From Psammoneis japonica (taxonomy: Eukaryota): DNA of 64,000 nt. The DNA is taken from assembly GCA_008632985.1 (NCBI GenBank), contig QPGO01000021.1:186001-250000 (forward strand), read 5' to 3'. Both the position numbers and the translations under genes were made by a program. The notes under the pieces were generated by a model. That model was not told the origin of the DNA, ran no database searches, and worked only from the letters and a program-made list of their open reading frames with translations. Of the stretch, positions 1-58,779 are shown piece by piece (the stretch's first letter is position 1; each line of letters opens with the position of its first letter).

Positions 1-1100
1 GACAAGAGAGTTTCTCAAAACTGCCTTTCCATTTTCCTTGCACTCATGTCAGGCCAAAACATTTGCTGCAGTCCTTTGGGATTGAACACACACAGCATGG
101 CAGATGACACTGATGACAAAGTGGAGGCCTTGGAGGGTTGAGCACTGTTCTTTCAATGCCTTGGTCATCATGCATTTAAACTCTTCATCAGAGTCTGGCA
201 GATGAGCAATTGAAGCCTTGGCAGAGTCCTCAGGATTGTGAGACCTGTGGAAGTGTCTCACAGCAGCAAAGCACATGGAGAGGAAAGATGGCTGTCTGTG
301 GGAAAGGGGCATCAGAAATGACATCTTGTTTGTCACAACATTGAAAAACAGGGCAAAAATGGAGACAGAAGGTCTGAACATGCATTGTCATGGCAACCTG
401 ATCCTGTGGCACAACTTGCATCACAGCATTGCAAAGATTGGCATGGTTCAAACAAATCAAAGAGTTTTGAGGGGAACTCTCACATTCAGGAGCTTCATCC
501 ATGATTGGTCCAACCTGCACAAGGTCATCAGCAAGCATTGCTCAAGGGACAAGGAGATCCTGCTGAATGACCTCATGATGGATGCATGCAACAGCTTCAC
601 TCTTGAGATCTGGGGGCACAAATTCATTGACAAAGATCTTGGGAGCAGGCACCTCATCCAGACATGGGACATTCAGGTGACAGTGGGCATTGGGCAAGTG
701 ACCATGCTGGTTGAATTAACCAGAGTCAACTTGATCTTGGTCGACCTGGTTGCGTGGGAAAAAAATCAATTTCCTGCGCAGAGCTCTGACATGCATCATA
801 GAGTGCGATGGTCGTGCTGATCACAAATCAAGTGAGAAAAACAGCTGTGACATTGACGACGATTCATCAGAGAATCGCAGCCAACACACTCAAAAGACAT
901 CGAAATGTGCTTGTCAAGAGGAAAGGTGACAGCACACTGCTGCTCATGACCCAACGAACTGCTGGCATCGGGACGATCTAACAACCTCAATTGGGACAAT
1001 GGTGCTCGTGCACTGGATCTGAGAGAAAGCAAGACAGAGAGATCATCGGATCTCTCCAACCCATCTACGCTGGTGTGTCTGTCAAGAGAGAGTGCACTCT
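1..1100. other. TpA- and CpG-depleted degenerate repeat remnant, family not identifiable
   Basis: Almost no TA dinucleotides; short overlapping Cys/His-rich ORFs in many frames; same composition as the transposon blocks elsewhere in the window. Confidence 0.45.
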
Positions 1101-1153
1101 CCAAGTCGGATGTCTGCCAGGATGAGATGGACATGGACAGGATTTCCCAAGGT

Positions 1154-3052
1154 TCACTCTTGGAGCACTTCTTGTGACTGCTTCAACCTTTTCTCAGGAG
1201 GCAAGAAAGGACTCTCGTCTTGGGCTGTAGTTGGAAGCGTCGAAGTTTCTGAAACTGATGATGACCAATTGATGGGATTCTGTCGGAGCAGCTCGTACGT
1301 AACACGAAGGATGTCCCGCTCCTCCACACGGGATGCGCCATTGCAGTCCTCCGTGACAAATTCATCTTCCAAAATTTCATCACCGTGTCTCTCGAAGACT
1401 GAATCGATGCACGTCAAGCAAAACTTGCGGTTCTCCCTGCACACATCAGGAGCCTTGGAAATCGCATCCACCAAGTTCATCATGTGGCTTCTCGTGTCCA
1501 CGCATCCAAACAATTTGCCACGGCCGGCTCGGTTGAGAAGGAGAGCCAACTCAATGTCGGGAACGAAGGTGCCAGTGCAGCAGTCTTGGCTTCCAAATGA
1601 CGCGTGGGAGCCATCATGTTCCAAGTGAACGTCACTGCAGAAATCTTGCATTTCAAGATGAAGTGGTGAAAAGTTCGACTTGACTGTAGAGTCGGATTTG
1701 AGCACAGCGCGAAAGGCGTTCTTTCCCTCAAATGCATTTCTGTTGCCACGAAGATCAAGAGTCTCCAAATTGTCGTTCCTCTTGAGTGATTCTGCAAGCT
1801 GACGGCAGGCTGTCTCACCCAAGCGATTGTGTGAAAGGTCAAGGACCTTGAGGGGAGAGTTTAGCTTCAATGCCTTCGTAACGGGCTTCATGGCGGCACC
1901 TTCTTCATCACAGAGCTTGAGACCGGGCAAGCGAAGCTCGACCAAAGTGCTGTTGACAGACAACATGGTGTCCAACGAATGAAGGAATCTGGCTTTCTGC
2001 GTTGTTTCGAATTGCTCGATGCGGACACTCGTGATGGTCTTGTTTGTCTTCAGACCGTTCAATGTGTCAACCCCAATTGGCTCATCTGCCCCTGCATCCT
2101 TGTCACTGTGCCTGTAAGAGAAACTGGTCAGGCTTGAACTGGCAACAGCCGACGAGAGCTTCTGTCCGTTTCCACCATGCAGACGACAGCTTGACAAGAA
2201 ACGTTCACAATCCCAAGAAACGAAAGCCCTGAAATCCACAGCAAGTTCACGAAGACTTGGATTGCAACAGAGCTTGGCCAAGGCCAAGGTTGAAAGTTTA
2301 AATTCGACTCTTCCAGAGGAGCTGAGCTCATCGGGACGGGGATGCAAATGAAGGACTCTTGGGTTTGGCGTTTCGCCCAATGACTCGACAAGCGAATTCA
2401 TGCTGAAATTCATCGTGTCACCCGAGCATTCAAACCCCATCATGTCATGTCCCCCAGATTCTATTTTTATTGTTGGTCCAAACTTGACAGCATGGAGAGA
2501 AGGATGTCGCCTCAACGTGTCACTGAAGGAAAACATGGAGTGCTTGCTGAAGCTTCGTCCCAAACTTGAGCCTTTGCGCATCTCAAATGACTCTAGTTGC
2601 ACAGCAATCCGAAGAACTTCGGCAAGGACTTCAATCGGGATCGTCGTAGATGTGACGAGGGTGTTGAGGTTTGGAAACAAAGACAGAGTCTTGCCAAAGT
2701 CCCACATCTTCTTCGCAGACGACACTTTACTGCAGAGAAACACTGCTCCGATTTGCTGTCGCCTCTCGCTCAGCTGCTTCAAGAACAGCTCAAAGTTTTC
2801 ATCATGCCCAGGAAGCACTGTCTTCTCCATGCTGCTGAAGAGATCTTTCTTTGTAAACTCTGTGTGGTTGTGAAACAACACCTGCGAAAGGGGAGCGACT
2901 GGGCGCGATGCTGCAAGCACTGCACTCGTGGCTTTCGAAACCGACACCGTCGTTTCGAGAGGTTCTGCTGGAGCTTCCATGATGTGGCTGGTCACAAGAG
3001 TTGTGGGTGCAACAAGAAGTTTGATCAATGACAGTGAACGCTTGCTGCTCAT
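1154..3052 (-). CDS. Leucine-rich repeat (RNI-like) protein, TpA-depleted, possibly decaying
   Basis: 632-aa ORF with LRR motifs (LKVLDLSHNRLG, LETLDLRGN, LVELRL); I count only 2 Tyr. Confidence 0.7.
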   Translation of the reverse strand: MSSKRSLSLIKLLVAPTTLVTSHIMEAPAEPLETTVSVSKATSAVLAASRPVAPLSQVLFHNHTEFTKKDLFSSMEKTVLPGHDENFELFLKQLSERRQQIGAVFLCSKVSSAKKMWDFGKTLSLFPNLNTLVTSTTIPIEVLAEVLRIAVQLESFEMRKGSSLGRSFSKHSMFSFSDTLRRHPSLHAVKFGPTIKIESGGHDMMGFECSGDTMNFSMNSLVESLGETPNPRVLHLHPRPDELSSSGRVEFKLSTLALAKLCCNPSLRELAVDFRAFVSWDCERFLSSCRLHGGNGQKLSSAVASSSLTSFSYRHSDKDAGADEPIGVDTLNGLKTNKTITSVRIEQFETTQKARFLHSLDTMLSVNSTLVELRLPGLKLCDEEGAAMKPVTKALKLNSPLKVLDLSHNRLGETACRQLAESLKRNDNLETLDLRGNRNAFEGKNAFRAVLKSDSTVKSNFSPLHLEMQDFCSDVHLEHDGSHASFGSQDCCTGTFVPDIELALLLNRAGRGKLFGCVDTRSHMMNLVDAISKAPDVCRENRKFCLTCIDSVFERHGDEILEDEFVTEDCNGASRVEERDILRVTYELLRQNPINWSSSVSETSTLPTTAQDESPFLPPEKRLKQSQEVLQE

Positions 3053-3111
3053 CGCTCATCGATTTATTCAAGAGAGCGAAGGGAAAACAATGATGTGATG
3101 ATGTGATTGCT

Positions 3112-3286
3112 TGAACAAATTACCCTGCAGTTGTTTGCTAGAGAGCAAAGTTATAGAAAACATTGCAACATCGTGCTGCCATTTCCAAGATTGTGACTAG
3201 ATCTCGGATGGAGTCTTCCCGTTCCGAATCGCCAAATGTGCAGTTCTAAATGCTAGTTCCGATGAGACCACATGGCAAATTCTTCA
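3112..3286 (-). repeat. 3' LTR (TpA-mutated copy)
   Basis: Aligns without gaps to 9858-10032 with 16 substitutions. Confidence 0.95.
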
Positions 3287-3297
3287 GTCCCCTCAAG
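3287..3297 (-). promoter_or_regulatory. Polypurine tract
   Basis: Minus strand TTGAGGGGAC directly precedes the 3' LTR. Confidence 0.65.
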
Positions 3298-3551
3298 TCG
3301 TTGAAGCAGACACTGAATCGGCTTGATCCAATTTACACTCCGACAGTTTTAGCCACAACTGTGTGACAAGGAAACCCTGACAACCTGCTGAAACCCAAAT
3401 TGGGAAAGGGTGCCGGTGTGACTGTGCCCCTCCAAGAAGCGCATGGAAGGAATGTGAGCCAACATGCCCGCTGGTGCGAGCTCCCATGCTCGCTGGATGT
3501 AAGGAGAAACAGAAAAAGGAGCAGTCGAAGGAGCGACTGTTCATTCTTCTT

Positions 3552-6500
3552 TCATCCTTTATCATCAAACATGTCGTGTAGTGTCACACCAATGAGGCCA
3601 TCTCGTTTGACACCACCGCACATGATCTTGGTCGCAAGATCAGCTGGATTGCATTCCGATCTAATGTGTCCGGCAAGGGACTCACCCACAGCTGCCGACT
3701 CCCTGACGGCATGGCAGCACACAGAGTTAGACTTCTTCTTCAAAGTCGACTCTGGGCTTTGGGTGTTGTGGACAACTGCCATGTTGTCCCCATGAATGCA
3801 TGATGGTCCGCTGAGCGGGACTCCCATCATCCTGAGTTTGTGCCTTGGGCCTCGCAAAGCTTCCATGCCTTGCTTCACAGCCACAAACTCAGCACCAAAG
3901 ACTGAAGTCTCAATGGTGCTCTGGCGCTTGGAGAACCAGGCGACTGGTGCCATGTTCAAATGGACAAAATGACCAGTGCGGGAGCGTCTCGTCACTTTGT
4001 CATTCGCATGATCTGAATCTACGAATGGGCGTGGATCAATGTCCTTGCCCAGAGCTTCTGGTGCATTCGGTGGAATCGCCTCCTCTACGTTCCCGTAAAA
4101 TGCCTGCCAATCGCATTCCTTAAAGTCAGACATGTGACATCCGGGCACGTCGGATCGAATGCTGACGTTGCGCCATGTCTGTTCTTGAGGCATCCACGCA
4201 CATGCAGGACAGCGTCGAGATGACCTTCTCCAGGCATGGCGAGGAATGAGGCGAGTTCGGATGTCTCCACTGTGAGGTCGACTCGTCCAAGTTCCACTGT
4301 CCAGCGCAGGACTCCCACCTGCGACTGGTAAAATCAAGCCTGCTCTGCATCGAGCTTTGGCGCAATGTCGAGTTCCGGTCGACAGTCGCACGGAAACGGG
4401 GCCGTTGCCTTGCGTGGCAACGTCCATCCAGGAGCAGTCTCATCTGGACACCCCTCGACATTCTTGATGGCCTGTTGGATGTGCTTGCTGGAGCTCATGC
4501 TCCATGCGCAGACACCATTCAGCATTTGCACTTCACGGATTTTCGCCCCGAGGTGCATTTCAGGGTCACCGATGGATCCGGGTTTCATCTTGAAGCACCG
4601 GTCCAATTCCTTGAGCGCTGACGTAGCGTCGTGGTGTGCCATGAGCACGTCGTCTGCACACAACAGTGCATGGGCACAGCATCAGAATGCATCATCCGGT
4701 CGGACCTGTGCCTTCATCCACACATCTGGATCAGCCAGACACGGTTCCCACCCACGTGCAAGATGCCAAGTGGTTCCTGAAGGATGCACCTGCACTCTTC
4801 AATCCGTACAATGCGCGCTTGACTGTGGCACGCTTCCCAGCATTGGGTCCAAACTCAGGTCCTAGAGTTGCAGTGATCTTCTTGCTGTTAGGTGCGGTCA
4901 CACAGGCATTCTCAATGTCCGCAGCCTTAACCTCCAAGTCATTTAGAGCCGCCAGAGCAAAGGCAATCCTTGCACTTTCGCGGGAGATGACGCTTGCATG
5001 CGTCAGAGTCGCTGGAGGTTCAGCGGTGTGTCCCCCTGCAACATGACGAGCCTTCCGCTTGAAGTCTTGTAGTTTGACATCGAAGACCAAGTGGCAGCGA
5101 ACATGCTGGTAACCCACGAGCTCCTCGTCATCGTCGACAATCTCAAAGGCTTTTGAAACAACATCGATCTCCTTGTCTGTGGCATCCTGCCACAAGCGGT
5201 TGCCGTCAGCCTTGTCGATCTCGACTGCCTCTTCATGGGTCTTGGGAATGCGCACCCCGCACTTATGAGTGCGCTTGTGATGTCACTTGTTCACAGCGGC
5301 TACAATCTGCTGACGTTTCTTGAAGGTAAAGGGAACCCACCAGGCAAAAGCTGGCTCGTCCTCTGTGGATCTGGCCCTGGCACACTCTGCCATTTCCACT
5401 GGGTTGGATTCCTTCAAGTCAGACAGTCGTTCCCAAGATGTGGATCCGTCTTTCCATTGTGCGCAAAGATGCCAGCCTTTGGCAGTCTTGCGCATGGATC
5501 GACGTCCCCTGCTGTCTTGGATGAAGGCATCCTCCTTCTTGATTGTATGTCCGTCAGTCTTGTGATCAACGATTGCATCTAGTGACAAGCACTGGTTGCC
5601 TTCATTGTCGCACTGCGCAAACATGTTCTCAGCGATGACATTCGCCGCGAATTCTGCTTCCTGTCCATCAGGAAACTCGACCTCACACACACGAGTGTCA
5701 AGTGTCGGGTTTGGGTTGGCCCGTCCGGCAGGTGTGCCATCCGGATTGAGCTTGCGTCGCTTCACTGCCCCAGTCTGTTCCATGTCCCCGTGGGGCAGCA
5801 GCACTTCTGCATTGACACATTGATCGTAGGCTTCGTCTGGGGTGTCACCCTCATCGGAGGCACTGGACGGAACATCCTGTTCCTCGTCATCCTCGTGCAG
5901 TTCGAAGGTGGGAGCAATTGCGTCAGGGTCATCAAAGTCCCCGACGGTCACACCCGGGCCCAGCTTGACCTCTGTCAACCTGTCAAACTTTTCACGCAAT
6001 GCAAGGTGCGTCTTGTGTTCCTGCTCCTCGGGCGTTAGTGCCCTGCAAGACGAGCGATGGACGACCTGTCTGTTCTCCTTGAGCATCTTGGCCATCACAG
6101 CTGGGCCTGCATCCCTGCTCGGGCCCGGATGTCGCCCCAGGACTTCCTTGTCCTCGGGAAATGAGACTGCCGTGTCTCGAAACATGATCCAGTCGTGCCG
6201 GCCGAGTTCACATGTGTGCGAGATGTCAGCCGTCTGACCGGACACTGCGGTTTCTGGGACTTCACCGTCAAGCTCATGGATGTTTCGAGCGGTGTTAGAC
6301 CCAATGAGGCCTTCCAGTTCCAGGCAATCATCCCACAAGCATTTTGGGGCCTGTGACTTAACCATCTTACGCCCAACGCCTCGCTTGAGTTCGCGAATTG
6401 CGCCCTCTGCGGTGTTAGACCAAGGGGCATGTGGTTCAGTTTGTCTTGCATGGCAATCGGCCTCCCTGGCTTTCTTGCTAAATTGCCCCATTGTCTCTTC

Positions 6501-7676
6501 TCTCACCCCGTCTGCTGGCATGGTGTGGGGCACGCCTTCTTGCGCGAAGAGCAACGACAACGCCTCGTGCGCTGGACGTTTTGACTTCAATGGACAAGCG
6601 CGCACCCATCCATTGGACATTGCGAACACTTGCGTGCACACATTCCCTCGCCTGGACTTGACAGAGGAGAACATGGTGTTGGAGCACATCTCCTTTGAGA
6701 CACGCCTGCATCGCAGTTGTCGGTCATTGGTGCGGAAACGTCGTGACAGCGTAGGATGTAGAACTGTCCTGGCTCCACGCTGTGTCGCAACCTTGAGAGT
6801 GTTCTGAGCATCCTTGAGGCTGATGGACCAGTTCTCGGCCAAACGTTCAGCGTCAACCTTGAAGCTGCGCTTTGTCGTCTTGAGCGAAGACAGTTTCATG
6901 GATGCCAGCAGCAAACGGTCATTGCATGCATTGGAAACATCACGCAACGGCTGATTCCGCAGAGCGTCTGAGGTCTCTTGAGCTGCAGTGCGTGAGAGCT
7001 TCGTGCTCATAATGTGCACATGAGGACGCGCATCATCCCCGGTCTCATGCACTCTGCCAAGAGCATCTGTCATGGCTTCTTCCCCAGCGTGGAAGTCGGA
7101 GGAGGCGGGGTCCCATTCAGGGGACTCATGCGTGAGTTCGCACACGCTCCCGTCTTGGGCCGCATCCTCATGTTGAGCTAAAGTCGGGACACTGGAGGGG
7201 AAGCAGCTCGAGACTCCCTCCAGGTCTAAAGGTGCAGTTAATGAAGTGCCATTGGCGTCCTTGGCGACGATCGCATGTTCCTTGTCGTTGGGCTTTGTCA
7301 GCAGAAACTTCGGTTTTAATGAAAGTTCCACGTCATTCAGCCACAACTGCATTGGACACAGCAAGTTGTGCTCAAGGTGTGGCACATGGACTGCTTGGTG
7401 GACAACCAAGACGTGTGGGTGGCCCGTCTGAGGATCTGTGTCAGTGGCAGCTCCACTGACTGTACGCAGGCGCTTGCTGGCACCCAAAGTTGGGTCGCAC
7501 CCTTCCATGTCTGCTGGCCTGTCATGGTCAAGCAAAATTAAAGCGTGCTTGCCTGGTGCGCTCATGTCTGCATGACTGTCAACATCCGTGCGAGACTCTT
7601 CTTGCGACGGTCCTCCAACCTTTGTCTGGGTCAAGCATGAGGTCTGCAACGGACTGAGCCGCATGATGGCCACCAT
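3552..7676 (-). pseudogene. pol: Copia pol (protease, integrase, RT, RNase H), frameshifted
   Basis: DSHAD protease motif; TEPHAPWSNTAEGAIRELK integrase; KARHVAGGH, ADIENAC, KRALYGLKSAG and LLCADD (YVDD) RT; FVDSDHANDKVTRRSRTG and NPADLATK RNase H; spread over ORFs 5283-7676, 4731-5255, 4334-4663, 4085-4318 and 3552-4427. Confidence 0.92.
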
Positions 7677-7682
7677 TGGCTG

Positions 7683-9172
7683 TCACTTCCTGTGGCATCC
7701 AGCCTTGGGGACATGCTTGCGAGCAGCCTCGCGAATCAACGCCTTGTTGTTTCGGTTCCATTCCTGCTTGGCAGCCGGAGGCTTCATTGGCTCTTCAGTC
7801 TCAGATTCACCACCACCTTCATCGGATGAATCGTCCATTTGAGCTGAGATGGCCGCGACCGTCTTGGTCAGAGCTTTGATCTGCTTGGCGTTGCCGGCCG
7901 TCGTGGCCTTGCCACTCTTTGTGTTGTCACGTGTGTCGCGCAGCGACTTGAGCTTCTTCCCAGCCTGGGGAGAAAGCTTGCTGCACTCTTTGGGAGGGTG
8001 GCACTCATCCTCCACGTCATCGGCATGAATGATGGTTTCTCGTTTGCACTTCCCAGCCTTGAGAGCCGCAACACGAAGACGTTTCGCGTCGTTGTCCGGC
8101 TTGGACTGCTTGATAAAATCCTTAAATGGGACAATGCAAGCATCAAAATCGTTGCGCAACGTTGTGCTGGCCACAATCTGCGTCTTGACTGAGTCAAGCG
8201 ACGAGTCCTTGACACTTGCAAGGAGGTGGCGGACCTTGGATCGTGCATCGATCCCTGCATAACCACACTCGGTAAGCCGTCCAGAATCGCGTGTTGTTCG
8301 ACATGAACTCGCACGCAGCGCTCGAAATTCCAGTTGCGCTTTTCCCCGTGGCAGGACAGACTGGCGAGCTTCCTTTCGGCAGCGTTCGCCAGGTCATCTG
8401 CATTGTTGGGGCCCAAGAAATGATTGCAGAGGTTCAGGCAGGCCGTCCTGCCGTCCTGGCGCCTCTGGGCTGGCTTGACATAAGCCCAACTAGCATGTTC
8501 ACGCGTGATGCCGGCTGTGATCTCCCACACTTTGATGTTGTCGGCCGTGAACGTCTCGGCAGGTTGAGGGTTGTTCCCAGCAGTGAGATGGGGAGCCCTC
8601 GCGATCATCTCCTCGATCGGGTCGTTGTAGTTGGTGGCCGGGTCGTCGGCCTCGGCGGTTGCTTCCTGGTTCTCGCGGATGACGTGCGACAGTGGCATCT
8701 TCGTTTCGCCTCGGCATGCCCGCAGATGCTCCTGAATCGACTCGATCGTCTTCGGCCAGTCCTTCTTGATGATCGTCGGCAGTGTTTCGGGCAGTTCGTA
8801 GGTCTCTTCCGTGGGACAGAAGTGGCGGTGGCCTTGCACTCGTGCAAGGTTGATGTCAACAGCTCGCAACGTTCGCGACATGCGCTCGCAGTGACGAGCC
8901 GCATGCGCGGTGAGCTTGAGATTCATCTCGGTGCGCAAAGGAACTGACGTCCCTAGGTTGGGTTGGACGTTCCCACCTGCCGGCGGATTGCCTGCCGCAG
9001 CCCCTCCTGGGCGACGAATGTCCTCACATGAGGTCTCGACCTCGTGGTCGTCGAGGTGATGCAGTTCATCGACTGAGTCGATTCCCTGCTCATCGGTTAA
9101 AGCCGCGGCTGCCTGCGCGGTAAACCCCAGTCAGGTGCAGGCAGCACGCATCGCTGCTGCGACTGCTGCCAT
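7683..9172 (-). pseudogene. gag: Copia gag, frameshifted
   Basis: ORFs 7868-8938 and 7683-8174 with CoDi gag-like segments (LSHVIRE, LSCHGEKRNWNFE); lies upstream of pol; probable ATG at 9172. Confidence 0.75.
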
Positions 9173-9840
9173 GGTTGATGGTTACAAACGGTGTGTTTTA
9201 CGTGTCTCGCAAACTTTTGTGTGGTTGTGCACGAAAAGTGAGTGAGGTGCGCGAACTTCGTATCGCTTTTTCGCCGTTGGATAAAAGTAATCGTTATAAC
9301 TACGATCAACGTGTCTAGAGATAGCGGTTTATATTTAATCCTCCTGGATTAATATCTCTGATGGGATTCACATATAACGGCTACTCTTACAATCTACGTG
9401 ATCGTATAATGCATGTGCCGATCATCGGCGACGTGCTCGTTCCCTGGTCTACATTGACCAATAGTGAGGTTAAATATATAATTTATTAATTATATCGCGT
9501 TTACATATTCAACTTGGATATGTATATATGCTCACTCGGCGATTTCAAATCGCCACGCAGTTGCCTCCGAGATAACTTCGGTATGGAAATGGCGTCCCAG
9601 ATCCAATTTTGCGCTCTGTGTCCGCGTATTTACGCTCATAAAACACATCAGGACAGTCGATACTTTTGTTATCCATAAGTATTACGGCCGAACTAGCCCT
9701 GGGAGTTACATACTCGTCAAGCACGAACGTCGTCTCACGTTCGTCGATGTTTTCATGTCATCTCTGACAAGTTGGAACGAATGGTCGTATTGCGAGTCGT
9801 TCGCAAGCGTTGCAATCATTACCACTGTCGTTACGTACGG

Positions 9841-9857
9841 CGATGGCTCTGATAAAG
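9841..9857 (-). promoter_or_regulatory. Primer-binding site, tRNA-iMet-like
   Basis: Minus strand CTTTATCAGAGCCATCG follows the 5' LTR; shares TATCAGAGCC with canonical TGGTATCAGAGCC. Confidence 0.65.
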
Positions 9858-10032
9858 TGAATAAATTACCCTGTAGTCGCTTGCTAGAGAGTAAAGTTAT
9901 AGAAAACGTTGTAACATCGTGCTACTATTTCTAAGATTGTGACTAGATCTCGGATGGAGTCTTCCCGTTCCGAATCGCCAAATATACAGTTCTAAATACT
10001 AATTCCGATAAGACCACATGGTAAATTCTTCA
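9858..10032 (-). repeat. 5' LTR (TpA-retaining copy)
   Basis: TGAATAAATT...TTCTTCA, direct repeat of 3112-3286. Confidence 0.95.
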
Positions 10033-13664: not shown

Positions 13665-14767
13665 GGCATTTTTTTACCTGGTGTGGGCAGCAGGTTTTGA
13701 TTAACTCGACTCAAGCGAAGCGAGAGTCAACTCGCAAAAGTAACCCGGATGTTAAAGTGGGGAGAACAAACAACTCTGCACAAGCACCCATCACCAAAGG
13801 CATCTCCTCTCAAAAGGACAAGGAACAACATTTGAAGCAAAGTGCAACATGCAGACAAGGAGCTTGTGCCAAAACAGAGTGTCTGGCCACAGCACCAGTG
13901 GCTGCAACAAAAGGCAAAGCAGCAAGAAGCAAAAAAGATGCACAGAGAGCCAGAGGAAGAGGGGCAAGAGCCGGGGTGCAGAGAGGAGAGTGGTGTGTGC
14001 TGTGCACTGAAGAACTGGGTGGAAGGGGTGAATAAAATGCCAAAAAGGGAAAATTGTGAGACTGTTTTGGGCACCAAAAGCAAGCAGCAGTTGAGAGATG
14101 CTCTGCAGCGTGTTGTGCTGTGACCCAGCAGCAAGAGAGCTGGCTCCTGCCCCCCAGCTGGCCCCAGCCAAGAAGGCCGAAGGTTGTCCGCAGCCAAGCA
14201 GCACCCCACAAAGTGTTTTCAATGCCATTTTGGGGTGTGTGACAGCTGCGCCAGTTGAGATTTGCCTCGCAATTTGGTGCAAAACAAAGTGTGGCGTGCA
14301 GACAAGGAGAGTTTGTGCAGAACCAGTGTGCCCAGCTGCAGCTCTGATGGCTGCAAGAGGCAAAGCAAAAGAAGCCAGGATGGCACCACATGCCAGCTCT
14401 CATAGAGAGCCCTGCTGCATGCTGCATCTTGAAGAAACAGGTGGAAGGGATGAACAAGATGCCAAAGAGAAACTTGTGAGACGGCTTTGGGTGCCAAAAG
14501 CACAAGCAGCTGAGATGCTCTACACAGCACAACCCAGCAAGAGCTCATTGCCACCACAGCAAGCCAGCTGAGAAACTCTGCATGTTGTCCATGACCAAGC
14601 AACACCTTGCAAACTGCAAAGTGTTCTCAGCACCACTTTGGGGTTTGGCCCAGTTGTTGTTGAGAGCTGCCTCACAAAGAACTGCTGCTTGGATGCTTGT
14701 TGCAGATCTGGAAAATCATCTCTTTGCAGCTTTGGCAAGGAGCTCCCCAGCATGATGATCATGAACA

Positions 14768-14801
<34 letters not shown>

Positions 14802-15452
14802 AAAAGCAGTGCTCTGTGTGTTGGAGCAGCAAGAAGCCAGAGCAACAACAAAAAGAAAAGACAAAAAGCACAGACAAGTTCACAGGCATGCAGCATCTGA
14901 GGTGGCCAGAAATGATCTCCGGCACATGCCAAAGCCCAAGGTGAGCAGCAGCAGAAAGCAGAAGCAGGGCAAGGAAACAAAGGCTTGCTTTTGTGAGGAT
15001 GGCATGAGCAAAGTCAAGAAGCCACAGTGCCAAGCTTTTCGGATGAATTGCACAATTTTTGTCAAGAAATCAAAAACAAACAGGAAAATCGGCGAAAGCG
15101 TCATTGAGACATCATGCCGTAAAGTGAGACACCGGCGGCACGCGTCATTGTGGTGCTGCAGTTTGTTGCGTGGTGCCTGCGAAGCACACATGTCCATCGA
15201 TGCATGTCGGCAATCCAAACTGAAAATTGACCCATCACCTTTCTGTCTTTCTTCACAATTGTGGATGTCACTTTGTGGCGTGCATGGGGGAGATTTGCAG
15301 CACACATAGAAGCAGAATGACCCCACAACATCAGCAGCTCTTTATGTGCACTACAAACTTTATAGCGCACATGGGGCTGCTTGCTTAAAGGATGACCGTC
15401 TGCGTCAGCAACGTCGTCATGTACGCTGACCCACACCATTTGACGACCTGCC
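13665..15452. mobile_element. Non-autonomous TIR element, copy 1 of tandem dimer (Merlin-like)
   Basis: Ends GGCA-N10-TGGTGTGGG and CCCACACCA-N10-TGCC; dimer flanked by 8-bp TSD GCGCTTCA (13657-13664, 17252-17259); superfamily inferred from termini only. Confidence 0.8.
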
Positions 15453-15459
15453 TTCGCTG

Positions 15460-17251
15460 GGCATTTTTTCACCTGGTGTGGGCAGCAGGTTTTGATTAAC
15501 TCGACTCGAGCGAAGCGAGAGTCAACTTGCAAAAGCAACCCGGATGTCAAAGTGGGGAGAACAAACAACTCTGCACAAGCACCCATCACCAAAGGCATCT
15601 CCTCTCAAAAGGACAAGGAACAACATTTGAAGCAAAGTGCAACATGCAGACAAGGAGCTTGTGCCAAAACAGAGTGTCTGGCCACAGCACCAGTGGCTGC
15701 AACAAAAGGCAAAGCAGCAAGAAGCAAAAAAGATGCACAGAGAGCCAGAAGAGAAGAGGGGCAAGAGCCGGGGTGCAGAGAGGAGAGTGGTGTGTGCTGT
15801 GCACTGAAGAACTGGGTGGAAGCGGTGAATGAAATGCCAAAAAGGGAAAATTGTGAGACTGTTTTGGGCACCAAAAGCAAGCAGCAGTTGAGAGATGCTC
15901 TGCAGCGTGTTGTGCTGTGACCCAGCAGCAAGAGAGCTGGCTGCTGCCCCCCAGCTGGCCCCAGCCAAGAAGGCCGAAGGTTGTCCGCAGCCAAGCAGCC
16001 CCCCCCCAAAGTGTTTTCAATGCCATTTTGGGGTGTGTGACAGCTGCGCCAGTTGAGATTTGCCTCGCAATTTGGTGCAAAACAAAGTGTGGCGTGCAGA
16101 CAAGGAGAGTTTGTGCAGAACCAGTGTGTCCAGCTACAGCTCTGATGGCTGCAAGAGGCAAAGCAAAAGAAGCCAGGATGGCACCACATGCCAGCTCTCA
16201 CAGAGAGCCCTGCTGCATGCTGCATCTTGAAGAAACAGGTGGAAGGGATGAACAAGATGCCAAAAGAGAAACTTGTGAGACGGCTTTGGGTGCCAAAAGC
16301 ACAAGCAGCTGAGATGCTCTACACAGCACAACCCAGCAAGAGCTCATTGCCACCACAGCAAGCCAGCTGAGAAACTCTGCATGTTGTCCATGACCAAGCA
16401 ACACCTTGCAAGCTGCAAAGTGTTCTCAGCACCACTTTGGGGTTTGGCCCAGTTGTTGTTGAGAGCTGCCTCACAAAGAACTGCTGCTTTGATGCTTGTT
16501 GCAGATCTGGAAAATCATCTCTTTGCAGCTTTGGCAAGGAGCTCCCCAGCATGATGATCATGAACAAAAGCAGCAGCAGCAGCAGCAGCAGCAGCAAAAA
16601 AGCAGTGCTCTGTGTGTTGGAGCAGCAAGAAGCCAGAGCAACAACAAAAAGAAAAGACAAAAAGCACAGACAAGTTCACAGGCATGCAGCATCTGAGGTG
16701 GCCAGAAATGATCTCCAGCACGTGCCAAAGCCCAAGGTGAGCAGCAGCAGAAAGCAGAAGCAGGGCAAGGAAACAAAGGCTTGCTTTTGTGAGGATGGCA
16801 TGAGCAAAGTCAAGAAGCCACAGCGCCAAGCTTTTCGGATGAATTGCACAATTTTTGTTAAGAAATCAAAAACAAACAGGAAAATCGGCGAAAGCGTCAT
16901 TGAGACATCATGCCGTAAAGTGAGACACCGGCGGCACGCATCATTGTGGTGCTGCAGTTTGTTGCGTGGTGCCTGCGAAGCATACATATCCATCGATGTA
17001 TGTCGGTAATCCAAACTGAAAATTGACCCATTACCTTTCTGTCTTTCTTCATAATTGTGGATGTCACTTTATAGCGTACATAGGGGAGATTTGTAGCGTA
17101 CATAGAAGCAGAATGACCCTATAACGTCAGCAGCTCTTTATGTACGCTATAAACTTTATAGCGTACATAGGGCTACTTACTTAAAGGATGACCGTCTGCG
17201 TCAGCAACGTCGTTATGTTGTACGCTAACCCACACCATTTGACGACCTGCC
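15460..17251. mobile_element. Non-autonomous TIR element, copy 2 of tandem dimer (Merlin-like)
   Basis: About 1.79-kb direct repeat of 13665-15452, separated by a 7-nt spacer TTCGCTG. Confidence 0.8.
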
Positions 17252-23685: not shown

Positions 23686-25930
23686 CACCCCTGTGGTAGG
23701 GGAGAATATGGTGATGTCATGGTTACGTGGCAGATTTATACCTTATCCATTATATTTTTATATAAATGTACTCACATTAATTTATGCATTTGTACACAAA
23801 TGCTAATAGTAACAGGAAAAATCCTGAACCATATTCTCCCCTATCATAAAACTCTGACCTCCAAACTCCGAGGGTACGGAAACGCACTTTTGGCAGCTCT
23901 TTTCTTCGCACAAAAAACACGCGTTTTGACGACTCGACCATGATGATGCCTCGTGGTGCTTCCCCATCGCCTTCCCAGGATGCCGGTCCTACTGACACTG
24001 TTGCCAATGATGCTGATACAACAGGCAATGCCATTGTTCCGGTTCTCGTGGGTGTGACACATGCAAAATGAGATGCTACAAACTCACACTGTTGTTTGCA
24101 CGCCGCACTGCCTCCCACAGATGCTGTCACGAATTCCAATGCCGCACTTGCGTTTCGGGCCCCTAGCATGCCCGATGCTGTTACTCCTGCCCTCATTGCC
24201 ACAGGCACTGTTGACACTGTTGTTGTCTTTTGCCAATGACGTCCACAATTAAATGCCAACATCTCACACTTTTTTTTTCTCGCCGCGCCGCATCCCAAAG
24301 ACACTGTAACGAATGCAGACTCCGCACCTGCGTTTTGGTCCACTGGCATGCCCGAGACTGTTGCTCCTGCCATTGCTGCCGCAGGTGCTGTTGATGCTGT
24401 CATTGTCTTTTGCCAATGACGTCCACAATGAAATGCCAACAACTCACACTTTTTTCATTCTCGCCCCACCGCCTCCCAAAGACACTGTCACGAATTAAAA
24501 CACCGCACCTGCGTTTCGGTCCACTGGCATGCCCGAGACTGTTGCTTTTGCCCTTGATGACATGGGTGCTGTTGACACTGTTGTTGTTTTTGCTTTGGAA
24601 GGAGGATGATGGATGACGGCGGACCAGGAAACCCTCACTGCGGCCTGCTGATGGACGAGTGTTGGTGTTGTGGCTCTTGTGCTTTCTATGTTTGTTCATG
24701 GTTTTCCTCTTTGTTAGCTCTCGATTGTAGTCTGACCTTTAAAATGTACAGACATGTGATGCAGCTCTCTGTAAATTGGAAACCTGATGACACTCTGATG
24801 GCAGGCATGCTTTCACAGTTTTTTAGTTGGACAGGTTGGCGAACTAGTCTTTGTTTGCAGGCGACTTGGCAAGGTTTCAAGTGAGTGGTGCATGTGACTT
24901 GGACACTGCTCCATTTGCCAGGACCAGGTCATTGTCTGCAATTCCATGAGACGCCACTCTCGCGGTTTGAAATCCACACATGATGTGCAACATGCTTTTT
25001 TGTAAGTTGCTAAAAAAGAGGCCGGTGGCAACGTGCTTTTGGCAAACACTCACTGTGTTCATCACTGTCAGACCTTCTGAGCTGGTGCCACATTGATGGC
25101 CATGCTGCTGCTTTGCATGCCGGCACCTTCTCTGCCCGCACTCCAATGGCTACGTCCACCTTCATGTTGCTGCGGTTCATCTTGACACCTGTTGTTGGCT
25201 CCGATTGGTTCCGCTGGGCTGTGGGTGAGTCTCAATCACCTCCAGATGGAGGAGCTTCTTCTTGGGAATCATCCTGAGAAACTCTGTTGCCGTGCCTCCT
25301 AGATGCTCCTCTGCCATGCCCACGCCCATGCAAGGAGCATCGACCAGTTCATTGGTGCTCGTTGATCCCATGCCTTCGTTGTCCCAACCAGCATCGCCTC
25401 TGCCGCCTCCAGGCCTGCTTGCATCCACAGCAGTCAGATCACGAGTGGGATTGTTTCTTGTTGTTGTTTTGTTGTGCTGGATTGTAGTGCTCAATGACAA
25501 ATGGCGGCAATGTCGTCCACCGTCAATTTTGGATCCGGTGAAAATGGGCCCAAACTTCAGGATCGCAAATCTGCTGTGTTTGGGTTACGACAGCAGGTGT
25601 GATGGCACCGGCCAACACAGGAGGGACTGTCGCATCAGATGTGGCAGGCGTAGATATGTCAGGTGGTGCAGGGGATGAAGAACGGGAGGTCGTCATGGTC
25701 GAGTCGTCAAAACGCGTGATGTTTTGGTGTGTGCGCAGTCTTCCAAAAAGTGCGTTTCTTTTCCGTACCCCCGGATTTTGGAGGTCAGAGTTTTAGGGGA
25801 GCTGTGGAATAAGGATTTTTACTTAAGGAATATACACATTCATGTGCATATTAACATTGAAACTCAACGGACGGCGAAGCCGTGCGCGCGCAACCACGAA
25901 CACACGCACAGCTCCCCTACCACAGGGGTG
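23686..25930. mobile_element. Non-autonomous TIR element, Mutator-like
   Basis: Perfect 19-bp TIR CACCCCTGTGGTAGGGGAG; long imperfect subterminal inverted repeats (about 23850-23950 versus 25685-25795); 9-bp flanks GCCCTATCT and GGCCTATCT differ by one base. Confidence 0.75.
24060..24595. repeat. About 180-bp tandem repeat, about 3 copies
   Basis: TTGTCTTTTGCCAATGACGTCCACAAT recurs at a 180-bp offset; GCATGCCCGA occurs three times. Confidence 0.8.
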
Positions 25931-26925: not shown

Positions 26926-27429
26926 TCACTCTGCCAGGGGCGAATCAGGATAGTCCATCAGATGTTGCTCCAATTGTTGTTCTGTTTTCTGTAACGCAGC
27001 TTCCGCCAATTCTTCCAATCGATCCGCTTCATCCGACGCTGCCAAGGCCTTGGTGACGACAGATCCCGCGTCAAGGTTGGATCTTGCCGCTTCATCGGCA
27101 CGCGTCAGCTGCTCCATGCTAATGGGTTGATCACGTTTCTTGAATTCCTCGTCTATTTCCTTGGCACTGTTTGCGGCTGCTTGGGCTTCTTTTTCGGCCT
27201 TTTCACTCAGTTCATTGGCAGCTTTGCGAGCTTCCAGCGCTTGGGCCCACAAGTCCTCGGCCTTTTCGACTGCCTCCAACACATCCTCCTCGGAAACCAG
27301 AAAACACCGTGTTGGGTGCAGTGATGAGTGTCGTGCGTTAGCGACATTTATTCCAAAGCCACCGACCAATTGAAAATTACAAACGACGATGAAGACAAGC
27401 GTCCAACAATAATAAGTTTGTCTCGACAT
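26926..27429 (-). CDS. Hypothetical coiled-coil protein with signal/transit peptide
   Basis: 167-aa ATG ORF; hydrophobic N-terminus; Ala/Glu-rich helix; normal composition. Confidence 0.7.
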   Translation of the reverse strand: MSRQTYYCWTLVFIVVCNFQLVGGFGINVANARHSSLHPTRCFLVSEEDVLEAVEKAEDLWAQALEARKAANELSEKAEKEAQAAANSAKEIDEEFKKRDQPISMEQLTRADEAARSNLDAGSVVTKALAASDEADRLEELAEAALQKTEQQLEQHLMDYPDSPLAE

Positions 27430-27527
27430 GCTGGTAATCGGGATGACAGCAATAATCTAAGTGACTATCGTGAAAATATGGCGTATTTTCCCGCCGCTGT
27501 GCGGTCTCAATTCCAAATTCCAGCCTC

Positions 27528-30500: not shown

Positions 30501-31400
30501 GGGAGAGGGGGCAGTGCACCAGCCAAGCTCCCTGGAGCAACATCTTTTGCATCTGATGGTTTTGAGAAGACTTTTTGCATTGGAAATAAATTGTGAACAT
30601 TGTCAGCTGTTGCTGCTTCCTGGGCAACAAATGTGTCAACAATCCTGATGGTCTTCACGAGAGGCAGAGAGTGAGCTGGATGACAAACCCAGCAGAAACT
30701 TAAAAAAGGTGAGAGCTGCTGCACACACCTGTGACAGCTCTTGTCTCAAGAAAGAGTTGGGAGAAATTGTGGTTGCACACTTGCACAACAATCTCTTGTG
30801 TCATCATTTCATGGACAGCGCAACAAAAGTTGAGCAGTTCTTGGTCGAGGGGTGCTCGCATGGCTCCTTTTTAAGGGAGACAAAGAGCCCAGCAGACAAG
30901 AGCATGAGGGACAGCAGAAGAAGGCTGGAAAGAGGCTGTTAAAGCAGACAAGCAGAAGGGGTGCACAATGCAGTGCACAGGGCATTTCAAGGAGGGGGCG
31001 CATCTGTGAACGAAGTTGTGGGGATGAGTGGAGAGGGTGTGACATGTGCATTGTTGCACCGGAGAGTCTGGTGAGTCATCCACTGAAAATGAGAGGAGGA
31101 GTGATGCATGCTGCCAAAGTGATTGTTGGTGAGTTGGCTCCAGGCAAAGTCAGCAGAGGGAAGGAGAAAGGGAGGAGAGGTGGTCGTCGAGAGGAAAAGG
31201 CGCGCAGAGCATGGAGCTCCACACCAGAGTCTTGCAAAAGGCGGGGGTGGGTGAGGGCCAGGGAGTTTTGGGTTGGGAGCAGGCGGTAGAAAGCAAAGAA
31301 CTAAAGAGGAAGCGGTGAAAGAAGCCAAGACCGCCCAAATCTTCCAGTTCCAAAAGGAATGCGACAGCTCCTGAGAACAGCTTGGAACACAACATGACAC
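27528..31400. mobile_element. Heavily mutated transposon-derived block
   Basis: TA nearly absent; internal dispersed repeat GCCAGAGACCAGAAG near 27700 and 30187; left end CCCGTAGAATTCTACGTGTTTT resembles the reverse complement of 55970-55995; boundaries approximate. Confidence 0.55.
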
Positions 31401-47435: not shown

Positions 47436-47696
47436 GTGGAAGCTTCCTTCCATCCTGCTCCTACAGTATGATCGATAGTAGCCACCCCTTCTGACGTCAT
47501 GAGTCAGTCATGATGTTGCTGCCACGCACAGTCACGCACAGTGAAATGCGAACTCGACATCCAACATTGCATCTCTCTTTCAAAAAAACCAAAGAAAATG
47601 AAAAAGGCGAGGGTAGTCGAACAGCAATAAAACAAACGACGAAGAGAAAGGTCAATTGCTATTGTTTACCATCATTCGACTGGCGTTGTTTTGCCA

Positions 47697-48524: not shown

Positions 48525-49399
48525 CTAGATGGGAAGGACAACAACAATGCAGCGGCCGTGCACACGTTGGATCTTTTCGTCGGATCGCAAGTAGGATCGT
48601 TTCGATTTTTTTTCTACTCGGAAGATGGTGCCATTGGCATTGGGCTCGTAGATTTTTGAGACAATGCTGAAAGAATGTTCCAGTGGATGGTGACGAATAC
48701 CTGGTTCCAAAGAAAAGTTGGGCACAAAGAGCACATCGCGACCTCCCTATTAGGGCACGAGTTGGAACCGTACACAACCTACCGCTGATATATTAGAAAG
48801 AACGCTGAAAAGGTCTTGCCTCACCATCATTGTCGCTGCATCCAGAGATCCTGCGACAAACATCAGGTGCACTGTTTCCATTAGCAGGAGGATGCAGGGT
48901 CGTAGCCAGCATTGCATGTTCAATGCAAGCGTTTTAGAAAAGGGCCACTGCTAGAGGATAGTAAGTTGAAACAGTGTAAAAACCACACAGCAGCTAGAGC
49001 ATCTACGCTGTGCTACAATCCCATCGTACAAAAACTTTTCCATTGATAGTTCATTGTTTAGCTTTGCCAGATCCTCGCGGTCCTGTTGCCAGCTGCTGCT
49101 GCACTTTTGCTTACAAAGAGATTGCCAGCCTCTTGACAACAAAATTCACCCTGCAGCTCCACTCCCTGACTGTTTTGTGGATGCATCATCCAACACCAGT
49201 GATGAAGAAATGTGTGTGGGGATGCTTCAGAGTTTGCCATTTCGGGAACACTGGGAAGCTTGAACATTGCCCATCGGCTCATCAATGTGAAGGTTCCCCA
49301 TCTTGTCAACACATGGAAAGTGTGATGCCATGGTGGCCTTGTGGCCTTGTTGCCCCCCTGCTGTTGACATTCGCGACTCAAGCACTGGCAGAGAAGCAT

Positions 49400-50270: not shown

Positions 50271-50299
50271 GATTTCTTCTGTGTTTGTCTCACAATGAG

Positions 50300-58773: not shown

Positions 58774-58779
58774 ATCATC

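Follow-up and report, generated by a model that had tools for sequence, protein, structure and literature searches.

The two long terminal repeats (LTRs) of a retrotransposon are copied from one template and are identical at insertion; a pair that differs mainly at one dinucleotide raises the questions of what has changed it, in which direction, and where. Such a pair lies in the 64-kb stretch of DNA analyzed here (the window), whose host genes look like those of diatoms; it also contains long poly-C tracts and one N run. A repeat search detected a single direct-repeat pair of this kind, 175 nt each and 91% identical, around a dead element. Since its coding strand is the minus strand, the TA-rich “5′ LTR” of the original prediction is the right-hand copy and its “3′ LTR” the left-hand one:

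3108..3111 and 10033-10036: candidate target-site duplication TGCT, a 4-nt match directly outside the element
3112..3286, minus strand: 3′ LTR (element orientation), hypermutated; 7 TA, 6 CG, TpA O/E 0.49
3287..9857, minus strand: internal region of the dead Ty1/copia-type element (alignment to homologues, ORFs)
9858..10032, minus strand: 5′ LTR (element orientation), TA-rich and essentially unmutated; 19 TA, 8 CG, TpA O/E 1.11

The TGCT at both ends may be a target-site duplication; a 5-nt match is absent from these flanks (3108 and 10033). A purine-rich tract (3287-3296) adjoins the 3′ LTR, and a presumably PBS-like sequence the 5′ LTR. The interior has a TA-rich leader (~9180-9857), a gag-like ORF (9130-7868, minus strand), and a pol-like frame whose alignment with full-length homologues spans 7598-3576. 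This frame changes twice, near 4760 and near 4120, and is broken by in-frame TGA stops at three places (7685, 5285, and 4733).

Compared site by site, the LTRs differ at 16 positions, all of them transitions: 12 have TA in the 9858 copy and, in the 3112 copy, CA (7) or TG (5); two have CG in the former and TG/CA in the latter; and the remaining two are other transitions. These are exactly the counts first reported for the pair. All 7 TA of the 3112 copy are common to both, so that 12 of 19 have been converted. By site class, changes fall on 12 of 38 A/T positions within TA and 1 of 72 outside it, and on 2 of 16 G/C positions within CG and 1 of 49 outside. The binomial probability of at least 12 of 16 differences on the 38 TA positions of 175 is 8e-6, and all 12 have the same direction.

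Direction is not given by two sequences alone. The TA-poor state might be original, with RIP-like C>T changes (CpA>TpA, TpG>TpA) in the 5′ LTR, the leader, and the tail of a tandem duplicate (below); the lower G+C of the TA-rich parts (0.44, vs. 0.55-0.61 in adjoining sequence) speaks for this. The coding region, however, is TA-poor and is the damaged part. The element protein was aligned with 45 long homologues, from the best 150 of 9611 proteins matched by HMMER at E ≤ 0.001. None of the 14 columns with a Tyr majority retains Tyr in the element (Cys in 7, His in 2, Phe in 3, and other residues in 2), while nine control homologues keep it in 62-93% of such columns and have no Cys. In stricter columns (≥60% Tyr) the element has 0 of 8, with 5 TGY codons and 1 CAC; other conserved residues are retained in strict columns (Trp 8 of 9, Gly 21 of 24, Pro 17 of 19). 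The reverse transcriptase (RT) motif, YEY..YVDD in homologues, has become CAH..CADD, and Tyr content is 0.1-1.1% in the element ORFs vs. 1.4-3.7% in eight host ORFs. Polarized in this way, the change runs as originally claimed, with Tyr lost to Cys and His: the comparison supports TA>TG/CA, the opposite of a RIP-like CA/TG>TA.

Composition points the same way. The element interior (3401-9000) has TA O/E 0.18 and CG 0.81, and a metagenome relative with 46% amino acid identity (L001) has 0.54 and 1.06. In the TA-rich parts, TA O/E is about 1.0 and CA/TG about 0.9-1.0, like the L001 leader (0.78-0.86), whereas RIP would be expected to give an excess of TA and a collapse of CA/TG; and sequence at TA O/E 0.01-0.04, as in the most depleted parts of the window, has no match to any functional sequence found here. 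Contradicted by the protein comparison, the RIP-like reading is very improbable.

A sequencing or assembly artefact could in principle mimic such a pattern, as could a modified base called as G (or C). The stretch is found in one public run only (59% of sampled words), possibly the assembly's own sample, and the poly-C tracts and N run also lend this some weight. But the Logan contigs, an independent assembly of that run, connect each LTR with its unique flank. One, at depth 64, extends from the left flank into 3112-3216, covers 10 of the 16 LTR sites, and has 1 difference in 615 nt; another, at depth 60, extends from 9967-10032 into the right flank, covers 6 of the sites, and has 0 differences. 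With a symmetric modified base at TpA, one strand would give TG and the other CA, and contigs would break at each such site; these 615 nt, which run across depleted flank and LTR, are unbroken. Base modifications should give no such miscalls if short reads underlie the contigs. Heritable mutations of the same kind are also described in the text of a preprint (Mettrop et al., bioRxiv 2026, 10.64898/2026.01.13.699255). An artefact is thus quite improbable. Read support for the substitutions first proposed extends to the sites these two contigs span, within a run that may share the assembly's sample, and stops short of 3217-3286 and 9858-9966, which none of the Logan contigs listed covers uniquely.

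The LTRs are not the only affected sequence. Eight blocks, totaling 28.4 of 64 kb, have TA O/E of 0.01-0.25, CpA/TpG up to 2.0, and CpG often 0.15, with edges sharp to ~50-150 nt. In 500-nt windows (128 in all), TA O/E rises with CG O/E (Spearman 0.72) and falls as CA/TG rises (-0.86). The affected regions include:

1..9200: TpA-depleted domain; left flank, 3′ LTR, and most of the element interior
13665..17251: tandem duplication, copies 13665-15452 and 15460-17251, 96.9% identical
24001..25600: TpA-depleted block; TA O/E 0.23, CG 0.57
27001..31400: TpA-depleted block; TA O/E 0.11, CG 0.40
49201..55600: near-saturated block, 15 TA per 6400 nt; TA O/E 0.04, CG 0.15, CA 1.87, TG 1.86
56201..58000: near-saturated block, 1 TA per 1800 nt; TA O/E 0.01, CG 0.17; part of a 2.6-kb tandem duplicate
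58801..60800: near-saturated block; TA O/E 0.04, CG 0.16; second copy of the 2.6-kb tandem duplicate

Weak matches to the copia C-terminal part (51849-52144) and the N run (52196-52378) fall within the 49201..55600 block. The blocks are somewhat higher in G+C (0.49-0.56) than the remainder (0.43-0.49), as might follow from selection on composition or codon usage, or from GC-biased gene conversion, with no mutator at all. The confinement of LTR change to TA, the sharpness of the block edges (~100 nt), and the dead state of the affected sequences (no Pfam family reached threshold in the 90 of 116 block ORFs scanned) leave this explanation with practically no probability.

In the first domain, TA O/E is 0.10 in the left flank (1-3000), which is at single-copy depth (64-85; the LTR family is at about 8-fold depth), and intermediate, 0.32, at 3001-3400. 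That the LTRs differ and that this single-copy flank is depleted as well bears out the proposal of action in place, after insertion. The target originally proposed, silenced repeats, stands in one part: silenced, methylated chromatin fits the loss of CpG, while the equal depletion of the single-copy flank makes repetition as such a doubtful target. The right edge of the domain lies inside the element (~9100-9260), adjoining the likely gag start (ATG ~9170, read by eye), and is less sharp than it seems, since a change between leader and coding sequence is natural (in L001, TA O/E drops from 0.8 to 0.4). Sharp block ends, one of them within the element, look like targeting of domains rather than of sequence homology; the 5′ end of the element may instead have been replaced by recombination with an unmutated copy.

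CpG loss (CG>TG/CA) is coupled to TpA loss in the same blocks, where it accounts for 2 of the 16 LTR differences and 9 tandem-pair differences and takes CG O/E down to 0.15. It appears to be the slower of the two (2 of 8 CG vs. 12 of 19 TA in the LTR). Blocks that also lose CpG fit silenced, methylated chromatin.

The tandem duplication at 13665..17251 is a second natural test, and the asymmetry is present there too: copy 2 has TA where copy 1 has CA/TG at 24 sites, with the reverse at 5. All but one of the 24 (23) lie in the tail of copy 2 (16859-17226), outside the depleted block within the duplication (13801-16800; TA O/E 0.08, CG 0.24). The sequence pairs compared are two in number, the LTRs and this duplication, both within a single 64-kb window.

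Both strands are affected, as the original prediction had it: CA:TG is 7:5 in the LTR and 13:10 in the tandem tail (counted by hand from the site list). This near-equality bears on editing before integration, by ADAR-like A>I on element RNA or by deamination of cDNA during reverse transcription. APOBECs do edit retroelement cDNA, and ADARs are cited as preferring a 5′ U (Mettrop et al., 2026). Against this stand the strand balance, the difference between the two LTRs, and the signature in non-element flank and in a non-LTR tandem duplicate. TAG, moreover, is less affected than TAC. The 3′ context preferred by ADARs is TAG. Both the depleted flank and the tandem pair contradict pre-integration editing, which seems to us extremely improbable.

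In the polarized events (34 in all, so the counts are small), the mutated A is found in TAC at 16 of 26 sites, TAT at 8 of 26, TAG at 6 of 21, and TAA at 4 of 25 (TAC vs. other contexts, Fisher P=0.0015). Among TA surviving within blocks, TTAA is enriched 4.3x and ATAT depleted to 0.08x. Ranked by tetranucleotide, survivors are fewest in TAT-containing words, while the polarized pairs put TAC first; because the two disagree on the top context, only a preference for Y over R on the 3′ side is solid. Copies of the element family add 40 of 260 difference places, forming 31 events; the 7 that are TG/CA double differences do not polarize, since the ancestral state may be CG as well as TA.

The 5′-TAY preference, especially TAC, would favor an adenine deaminase of the TadA/ADAT type over an ADAR-like one. 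TadA/ADAT enzymes target an A preceded by U/T (U33-A34), and the native TadA loop is UAC; it is because the target recalls the U33-A34-C35 loop edited by TadA that we suggest an agent of this kind. Granting that the phenomenon is real, such a DNA adenine deaminase has, in our estimate, not quite an even chance of being the agent. The chemistry might instead be on thymine, with T at TpA oxidized or otherwise modified (5hmU/base-J-like, by TET/JBP) and mispairing with G, or lie in error-prone repair (Pol eta type, WA>WG) of silenced chromatin. TpA is self-complementary, making A>G on one strand and T>C on the opposite one indistinguishable; in dinoflagellates, 5hmU is concentrated at TpA/TpC; and the 16 LTR differences include one AA>AG, which a WA motif permits. 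AA is nearly untouched, however: outside TA, 1 of 72 A/T positions has changed. Pol eta also mutates AA and yields transversions, while all 16 LTR differences are transitions; and the TAC preference parallels the TadA tRNA loop, a parallel that we know of for no TET/JBP enzyme. In-place mutation by these other routes is unlikely, with perhaps a minor share of the probability.

Overall, the best explanation is probably in-place TA>TG/CA hypermutation of bounded chromosome blocks, the copia element included. A Ty1/copia-type retrotransposon would have inserted on the minus strand of an apparent diatom genome; TpA would then have been changed to TpG/CpA (A>G on either strand) from the window start to ~9200, taking in the 3′ LTR and coding region and sparing the 5′ leader and 5′ LTR. 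The same process would have driven seven other blocks to near-total TpA loss, with the slower CpG loss expected of cytosine methylation in the same blocks. Of this account, the window itself demonstrates the direction, the involvement of both strands, action in place, the arrangement in blocks, and the coupling to CpG loss; the agent, its recruitment, and its function are proposals. A TadA/ADAT-kind deaminase would presumably be recruited to silenced, methylated chromatin, with no dependence on sequence duplication as such. Destruction of Tyr codons and of the RT active site suggests a role in genome defense.

Several known systems offer partial likenesses. RIP in ascomycete fungi also makes dense, dinucleotide-specific transitions on both strands, killing repeated or foreign DNA in place, and duplicated DNA is among the targets here (the ~8-fold LTR family, the tandem duplicates). 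But here direction and chemistry are opposite, A>G in place of C>T: TpA is destroyed and not created; G+C goes up; TAA/TAG stops are removed where RIP makes them; a flank of single-copy depth is affected; and the organism is non-fungal. Decay of methylated CpG in silenced transposons, of which TCG hypermutation in Microbotryum is reportedly a case, likewise gives CG>TG/CA, as in these blocks; 5mC deamination cannot remove TpA. The evidence on direction upholds the earlier argument that neither fungal RIP, which creates TpA, nor 5mC decay, which removes CpG, can explain its loss. TadA, ADAT2-ADAT3, and TadA-derived adenine base editors share the A>I(G) chemistry, and the native loop UAC parallels the TAC preference, but their natural substrates are tRNAs. 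Natural action of TadA/ADAT on chromosomal double-stranded DNA in vivo is to our knowledge not established, except for reports from amphioxus and trypanosomes. Both are cited in the preprint text (Mettrop et al., 2026). ADAR (dsRNA hyper-editing; 5′ U preferred) and APOBEC3 (retroelement cDNA) are deaminase-based innate defenses leaving clustered transitions in retroelements; their substrates are RNA or single-stranded cDNA that has yet to integrate, and the marks fall on one strand, while here both strands carry them, the LTRs are unequal, and non-element DNA is affected.

The closest precedent is Bigelowiella natans, in whose mutation-accumulation lines integrated viral DNA undergoes de novo TpA>TpG/CpA hypermutation; an ADAT2-like adenosine deaminase is proposed as the agent (Mettrop et al., 2026). 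The original prediction knew of no description of such a process; this preprint, by its text, describes the same signature: almost exclusively A>G/T>C, TpA-only, on both strands, and restricted to regions of foreign origin, with TpA-depleted, CpA+TpG-enriched clusters and RT and DDE domains enriched among depleted CDS. The host here is diatom-like (a stramenopile) and not a chlorarachniophyte, and the target is an LTR retrotransposon plus flank, polarized by LTR pair and protein homology, rather than viral DNA. Depletion is deeper (O/E 0.01-0.2, vs. 0.45 for the B. natans NCLDV region and a cluster cut-off of 0.43 or lower). CpG is lost in the same blocks here, while “CpG” occurs 0 times in the preprint's main text, and its text contains no 3′ context for TpA mutation that we could find (Mettrop et al., 2026). 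De novo events were seen in the B. natans lines; the evidence here comes from standing sequence. What the present locus adds is a second, distant lineage with TpA hypermutation, LTR retrotransposons as targets, a near-saturated signature, its coupling with CpG loss, and an apparent preference for 5′-TAY, especially TAC.

The retrotransposon is flanked by the one direct-repeat pair in its region, two LTRs of 175 nt that are 91% identical:

3112-10032, minus strand: copia-type LTR retrotransposon
9858-10032, minus strand: its 5′ LTR
3112-3286, minus strand: its 3′ LTR

By alignment and site-by-site comparison, the LTRs have 16 differences, all of them transitions. Twelve are TA in the copy at 9858 and CA (7) or TG (5) in the copy at 3112; two are CG in the 9858 copy and TG or CA in the other; the remaining two are other transitions. 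These are exactly the counts of the original prediction; as coding is on the minus strand, what it called the 5′ LTR is the copy at 9858-10032. At 13 of the 16 sites the unmutated copy has A/T and the mutated copy G/C. There are 19 TA dinucleotides in the 9858 copy and seven in the 3112 copy, all seven common to both. A/T positions have changed at 12 of 38 sites inside TA and 1 of 72 outside it, and G/C positions at 2 of 16 in CG and 1 of 49 outside it; the change ratio between TA and other sites is in the tens of fold (P = 8e-6 for at least 12 of 16 differences landing on TA positions).

By homology and structure, the element appears to be a dead Ty1/copia-type retrotransposon. Over 7598-3576, and with two frame changes, its long frames on the minus strand can be aligned to full-length polyproteins of about 1350 aa; three stops, all TGA, interrupt the polyprotein frame. 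A HMMER search of its 799-aa ORF against 1.84 billion representatives gives 9611 matches at E<=0.001, the best at 1e-171; looking up the clusters of 10 homologues yielded no names. Full-length homologues aligning over 7598-3576 have Pfam RVT_2 scores of 48-57 bits, above threshold; the reverse transcriptase (RT) piece in the window (ORF 4731-5282) reaches 28.9 bits (E=1e-6), below the cut-off of 31.6 bits, a weakness expected after hypermutation. Each LTR has TG at its start and CA at its end, a purine-rich GAGGGGAC adjoins the 3′ LTR, and TGCT is found on both outer sides of the element, a match of 4 nt (copia target-site duplications usually have 5). A putative PBS-like sequence lies next to the 5′ LTR. 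In the one public run containing the stretch, contig depth rises from about 60-85 on the two flanks to about 210-1290 within the element, which indicates that the family has several copies; these differ from the window element at 225 transition and 35 transversion places. Double differences of TG against CA between family copies were considered as proof of a TA ancestor and dropped, since an ancestral CG gives the identical pattern.

The LTR asymmetry is the edge of a far larger pattern. A composition scan (500-nt windows and 200-nt segmentation) finds eight TpA-depleted blocks, together 28.4 of the 64 kb, with TpA observed/expected ratios (O/E) of 0.01-0.25 and CpA and TpG at 1.24-1.99:

TpA-depleted blocks in the window, with TpA O/E
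1-3000: 0.10
3401-9000: 0.18
13801-16800: 0.08
18001-18600: 0.25
24001-25600: 0.23
27001-31400: 0.11
49201-55600: 0.04
56201-58000: 0.01
58801-60800: 0.04

The first two entries are counted as one domain, the stretch between them (3001-3400) being intermediate, at 0.32; 48 TA remain in 3401-9000. Outside the blocks TpA O/E is about 0.5-0.74, CpG about 1, and CpA/TpG about 1.1-1.2. Across 128 windows, TpA O/E rises with CpG O/E (Spearman 0.72) and falls as CpA/TpG increases (-0.86). Block edges are sharp to roughly 50-150 nt, the edge inside the element being at about 9.1-9.3 kb. The first block takes in the 3′ LTR and the left flank, whose depth is that of single-copy DNA, but neither the 5′ LTR nor the leader (about 9180-9857). 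Read by eye, an ATG in good context at about 9170-9172 (minus strand) is apparently in frame with the gag-like ORF, from which it is separated by one TGA at 9131-9133 (minus strand). The switch from TA-poor to TA-rich sequence falls within about 100 nt of this ATG, so part of the TA contrast may be a natural difference between coding and leader sequence.

Stop codons are affected as well: in the blocks 1-3000, 13801-16800, 27001-31400 and 49201-60800, TAA and TAG occur 2.3 and 1.5 times per kb on each strand, compared with 9.7 and 9.9 in normal DNA, while TGA is unchanged. The loss of TAA and TAG accounts for the long open frames in all six reading frames of these blocks, 116 ORFs of at least 90 aa in about 28 kb. 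Of these 116 ORFs, 90, from depleted blocks other than the element, were searched against Pfam and gave no family above threshold. With tblastn, 31 long copia homologues find only weak matches in the window beyond the element, at 51849-52144 (plus strand; E 2e-6 to 7e-4). These involve the C-terminal portion of four copia polyproteins and lie inside the most saturated block, which by this homology may be an older copia relic. The same block contains an assembly gap of 183 N (52196-52378) and long poly-C tracts (50418-50432 and 50756-50764). In the depleted left flank there is a 633-aa open frame (1154-3055, minus strand) with 0.3% Tyr and a sub-threshold LRR match; this frame may be what remains of a hypermutated gene, or may have opened through stop-codon loss.

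A second repeat pair straddles a block edge:

13665-15452: tandem duplicate, copy 1
15460-17251: tandem duplicate, copy 2

The copies are 96.9% identical, with 46 substitutions, of which 29 are TA against CA/TG and nine CG against CA/TG. Copy 2 holds the TA at 24 sites and copy 1 at five. Of the 24, 23 fall within the final 370 nt of copy 2 (16859-17226), a tail that protrudes from the depleted block; the corresponding part of copy 1 is inside it. Within the window, then, the TpA bias expected of other repeat pairs is found again (24 sites against 5). Farther along is a 2.6-kb tandem duplication (56147-58779 and 58764-61396; 99.7% identity, 5 substitutions); in each copy, an AT-richer spacer with normal TA comes after a block almost devoid of TA (O/E 0.01-0.04). 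One of two paralogous ORFs with Methyltransf_24 matches (47631-48524 and 61381-62340; E 2e-14 and 8e-13) adjoins these hypermutated repeats; their DNA is 82.6% identical, and the differences have an ordinary mixed spectrum.

Two sequences alone give no polarity, and a RIP-like change of CpA to TpA in the TA-rich copies would leave the same differences; protein homology was therefore used to decide between the two directions. In an alignment of 45 long homologues, the element keeps Tyr at none of 14 Tyr-majority columns, having seven Cys, two His, three Phe and two other residues instead. Nine control homologues treated identically keep Tyr at 62-93% of such columns and never have Cys. In columns with at least 60% Tyr the element has Tyr at 0 of 8, with TGC/TGT codons five times and CAC once, whereas other residues are kept (Trp 8/9, Gly 21/24, Pro 17/19). 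The RT active-site stretch, YEY..YVDD in homologues, reads CAH..CADD in the element, which implies TAY>TGY/CAY and GTA>GCA. Tyr content is 0.1-1.1% in the element ORFs and 0.0-0.9% in ORFs of the other blocks, compared with 1.4-3.7% in eight host ORFs. As a baseline for composition, the sole relative from a single-protein locus search, an element from a metagenome (46% aa identity; too distant to polarize the LTR sites), has a TpA O/E of 0.54 and a CpG O/E of 1.06. The lost Tyr columns, the CADD motif, the Tyr content and the composition of this relative together mark the TA-poor state as derived and damaged. The proposed direction, TA to TG/CA, is thus supported, and the RIP-like reading is excluded: fungal RIP changes C to T at CpA and creates TpA, the opposite of what is seen here. 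Two of the best 150 of the 9611 copia homologues, P0024 and P0127 from public metagenome assemblies, are also almost Tyr-free (0.3% and 0.7%), with no Tyr in any of their five and six Tyr-majority columns, respectively, and Cys/His in three and five. At about 50% identity to the window protein they belong to other families or other organisms, and their sequences hint that hypermutated copies occur elsewhere.

The contigs speak against a base modification misread in sequencing: reads of a symmetrically modified TpA would give TG on one strand but CA on the opposite one, and contigs across it would break. Instead, one contig at depth 64 runs unbroken from the unique left flank into 3112-3216, differing at 1 position over 615 nt, and another at depth 60 connects the right flank to 9967-10032 without any difference. 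At 10 of the 16 LTR sites the first bears out the mutated state, and at the other six the second bears out the unmutated one. Both contigs come from a single run that may be the assembly's own sample and so serves as a check on the assembly rather than as an independent replicate. Almost none of the stretch is present in two other public runs. Pre-integration editing of the RNA or cDNA, of the APOBEC/ADAR type, does not fit either. It predicts strand-specific changes that are equal in both LTRs or limited to the element; here both strands are mutated, the LTRs are unequal, and the flank and the tandem duplicate carry the signature. With CA:TG near balance (7:5 in the LTR, 13:10 by row count in the tandem tail) and non-element DNA affected, the observations support an in-place A>G change at TpA on both strands.

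The suggestion that repeats as such are the target fares less well, since the flank at single-copy depth is mutated too. The pattern looks like the targeting of a domain, and CpG loss shares it. Fungal RIP depends on duplication and mutates both copies of a duplicate. Here a flank now at single-copy depth is mutated, though its copy number may have differed in the past, and in both pairs one copy or part of it escaped. Within the blocks CpG O/E is highest in the young element, at 0.81, and falls as low as 0.15, against about 1 outside, and CG>TG/CA makes up 2 of the 16 LTR differences. Decay of methylated CpG, which likewise gives CG>TG/CA and low CpG O/E, would explain only this minority of the changes; the TpA process is coupled with this CpG loss, and thereby probably with cytosine methylation.

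The LTR and tandem pairs give 34 polarized events, which can be sorted by the base 3′ to the mutated A:

Mutated sites by 3′ context
TAC: 16 of 26
TAT: 8 of 26
TAG: 6 of 21
TAA: 4 of 25

TAY differs from TAR at P=0.019 and TAC from the rest at P=0.0015; only the preference for Y over R is firm. The 155 TA dinucleotides that survive in the blocks are enriched 4.3-fold for TTAA and reduced to 0.08-fold for ATAT relative to normal DNA, a ranking that tracks the number of strands offering TAY. A TAY preference also explains why Tyr codons, which are TAY, are almost gone while TA loss in the element is nearer 60%. The tRNA loop recognized by TadA is U-A-C, and ADARs prefer a 3′ G, so the context leans toward a TadA/ADAT-like enzyme. 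In the mechanism favoured here, such a candidate enzyme would deaminate adenine in DNA and would be recruited to silenced, methylated chromatin. Granted that the phenomenon is real, we give this mechanism somewhat less than an even chance; its main alternatives are thymine modification and error-prone repair.

The host appears to be a diatom and is not Bigelowiella. An EngA/Der GTPase ORF (39355-40974) has 53-69% identity to its best 120 listed matches, and those listed with an organism name are all diatoms, including Ditylum, Thalassiosira, Skeletonema, Chaetoceros, Attheya, Mayamaea, Cyclostephanos and Seminavis. Host genes are long uninterrupted ORFs, among them an HSF-type factor, an mTERF and a JmjC protein.

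The process had been thought undescribed, but a preprint on the alga Bigelowiella natans reports TpA>TpG/CpA mutation (bioRxiv 2026, 10.64898/2026.01.13.699255). According to its main text, 231 of 302 nuclear point mutations in 15 mutation-accumulation lines fell in two integrated viral regions; nearly all of these were A>G/T>C, all were at TpA, and they arose in some of the lines only, at a rate about 1000 times background. The authors propose an ADAT2 homologue as the agent. On this account the two cases agree in type of change (almost only A>G/T>C there; 16 of 16 LTR differences transitions and 29 of 46 tandem substitutions TA against CA/TG here), in restriction to TpA with TpG or CpA by strand (here 12/38 against 1/72, CA:TG 7:5), and in confinement to foreign or mobile regions (here eight sharp-edged blocks in DNA otherwise at about 0.6, one of them the copia element). 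They differ in that the B. natans mutations were seen de novo, at about 1000-fold background, and the window offers only an LTR-pair ratio of tens of fold. CpG, LTRs, diatoms and 3′ context do not figure in the main text of the preprint (10.64898/2026.01.13.699255).

In open PMC papers and bioRxiv, no description of TpA hypermutation in diatoms was found; a SPLASH preprint retrieved with "diatom" and "hypermutation" concerns immunoglobulin hypermutation and is irrelevant. The signature in this apparent diatom belongs to a kind that was first reported only very recently; it occurs in a distant lineage, is close to saturation, and adds to that kind retrotransposon targets, a coupling to CpG loss and a TAY/TAC preference. 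A bolder reading, which we consider rather unlikely, is that diatoms and chlorarachniophytes share a chromatin-directed, TadA/ADAT-derived DNA adenine deaminase with a preference for 5′-TAC. Recruited to silenced domains that are methylated, this enzyme would go on removing TpA from transposons and integrated viruses to the point where no Tyr codons or TAA/TAG remain. If true, this would amount to a widespread eukaryotic genome defence in SAR lineages and a natural adenine editor of double-stranded DNA.

With an LTR pair and a tandem pair that both cross a block edge, the window amounts to a clean set of natural experiments, and the TAY/TAC preference narrows the search for an enzyme. Base-editing research would also take an interest in a natural enzyme acting on adenine in chromosomal DNA. 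Gene predictors would probably call false genes in the stop-poor blocks, and homology searches will fail to find transposons there. Genetic manipulation is possible in some diatoms. A single report of TpA-specific A>G hypermutation of foreign DNA exists to date, the preprint on a rhizarian alga (10.64898/2026.01.13.699255). A near-saturated signature in an apparent diatom, a member of a distant and ecologically dominant group, would mean that it is no one-species curiosity.
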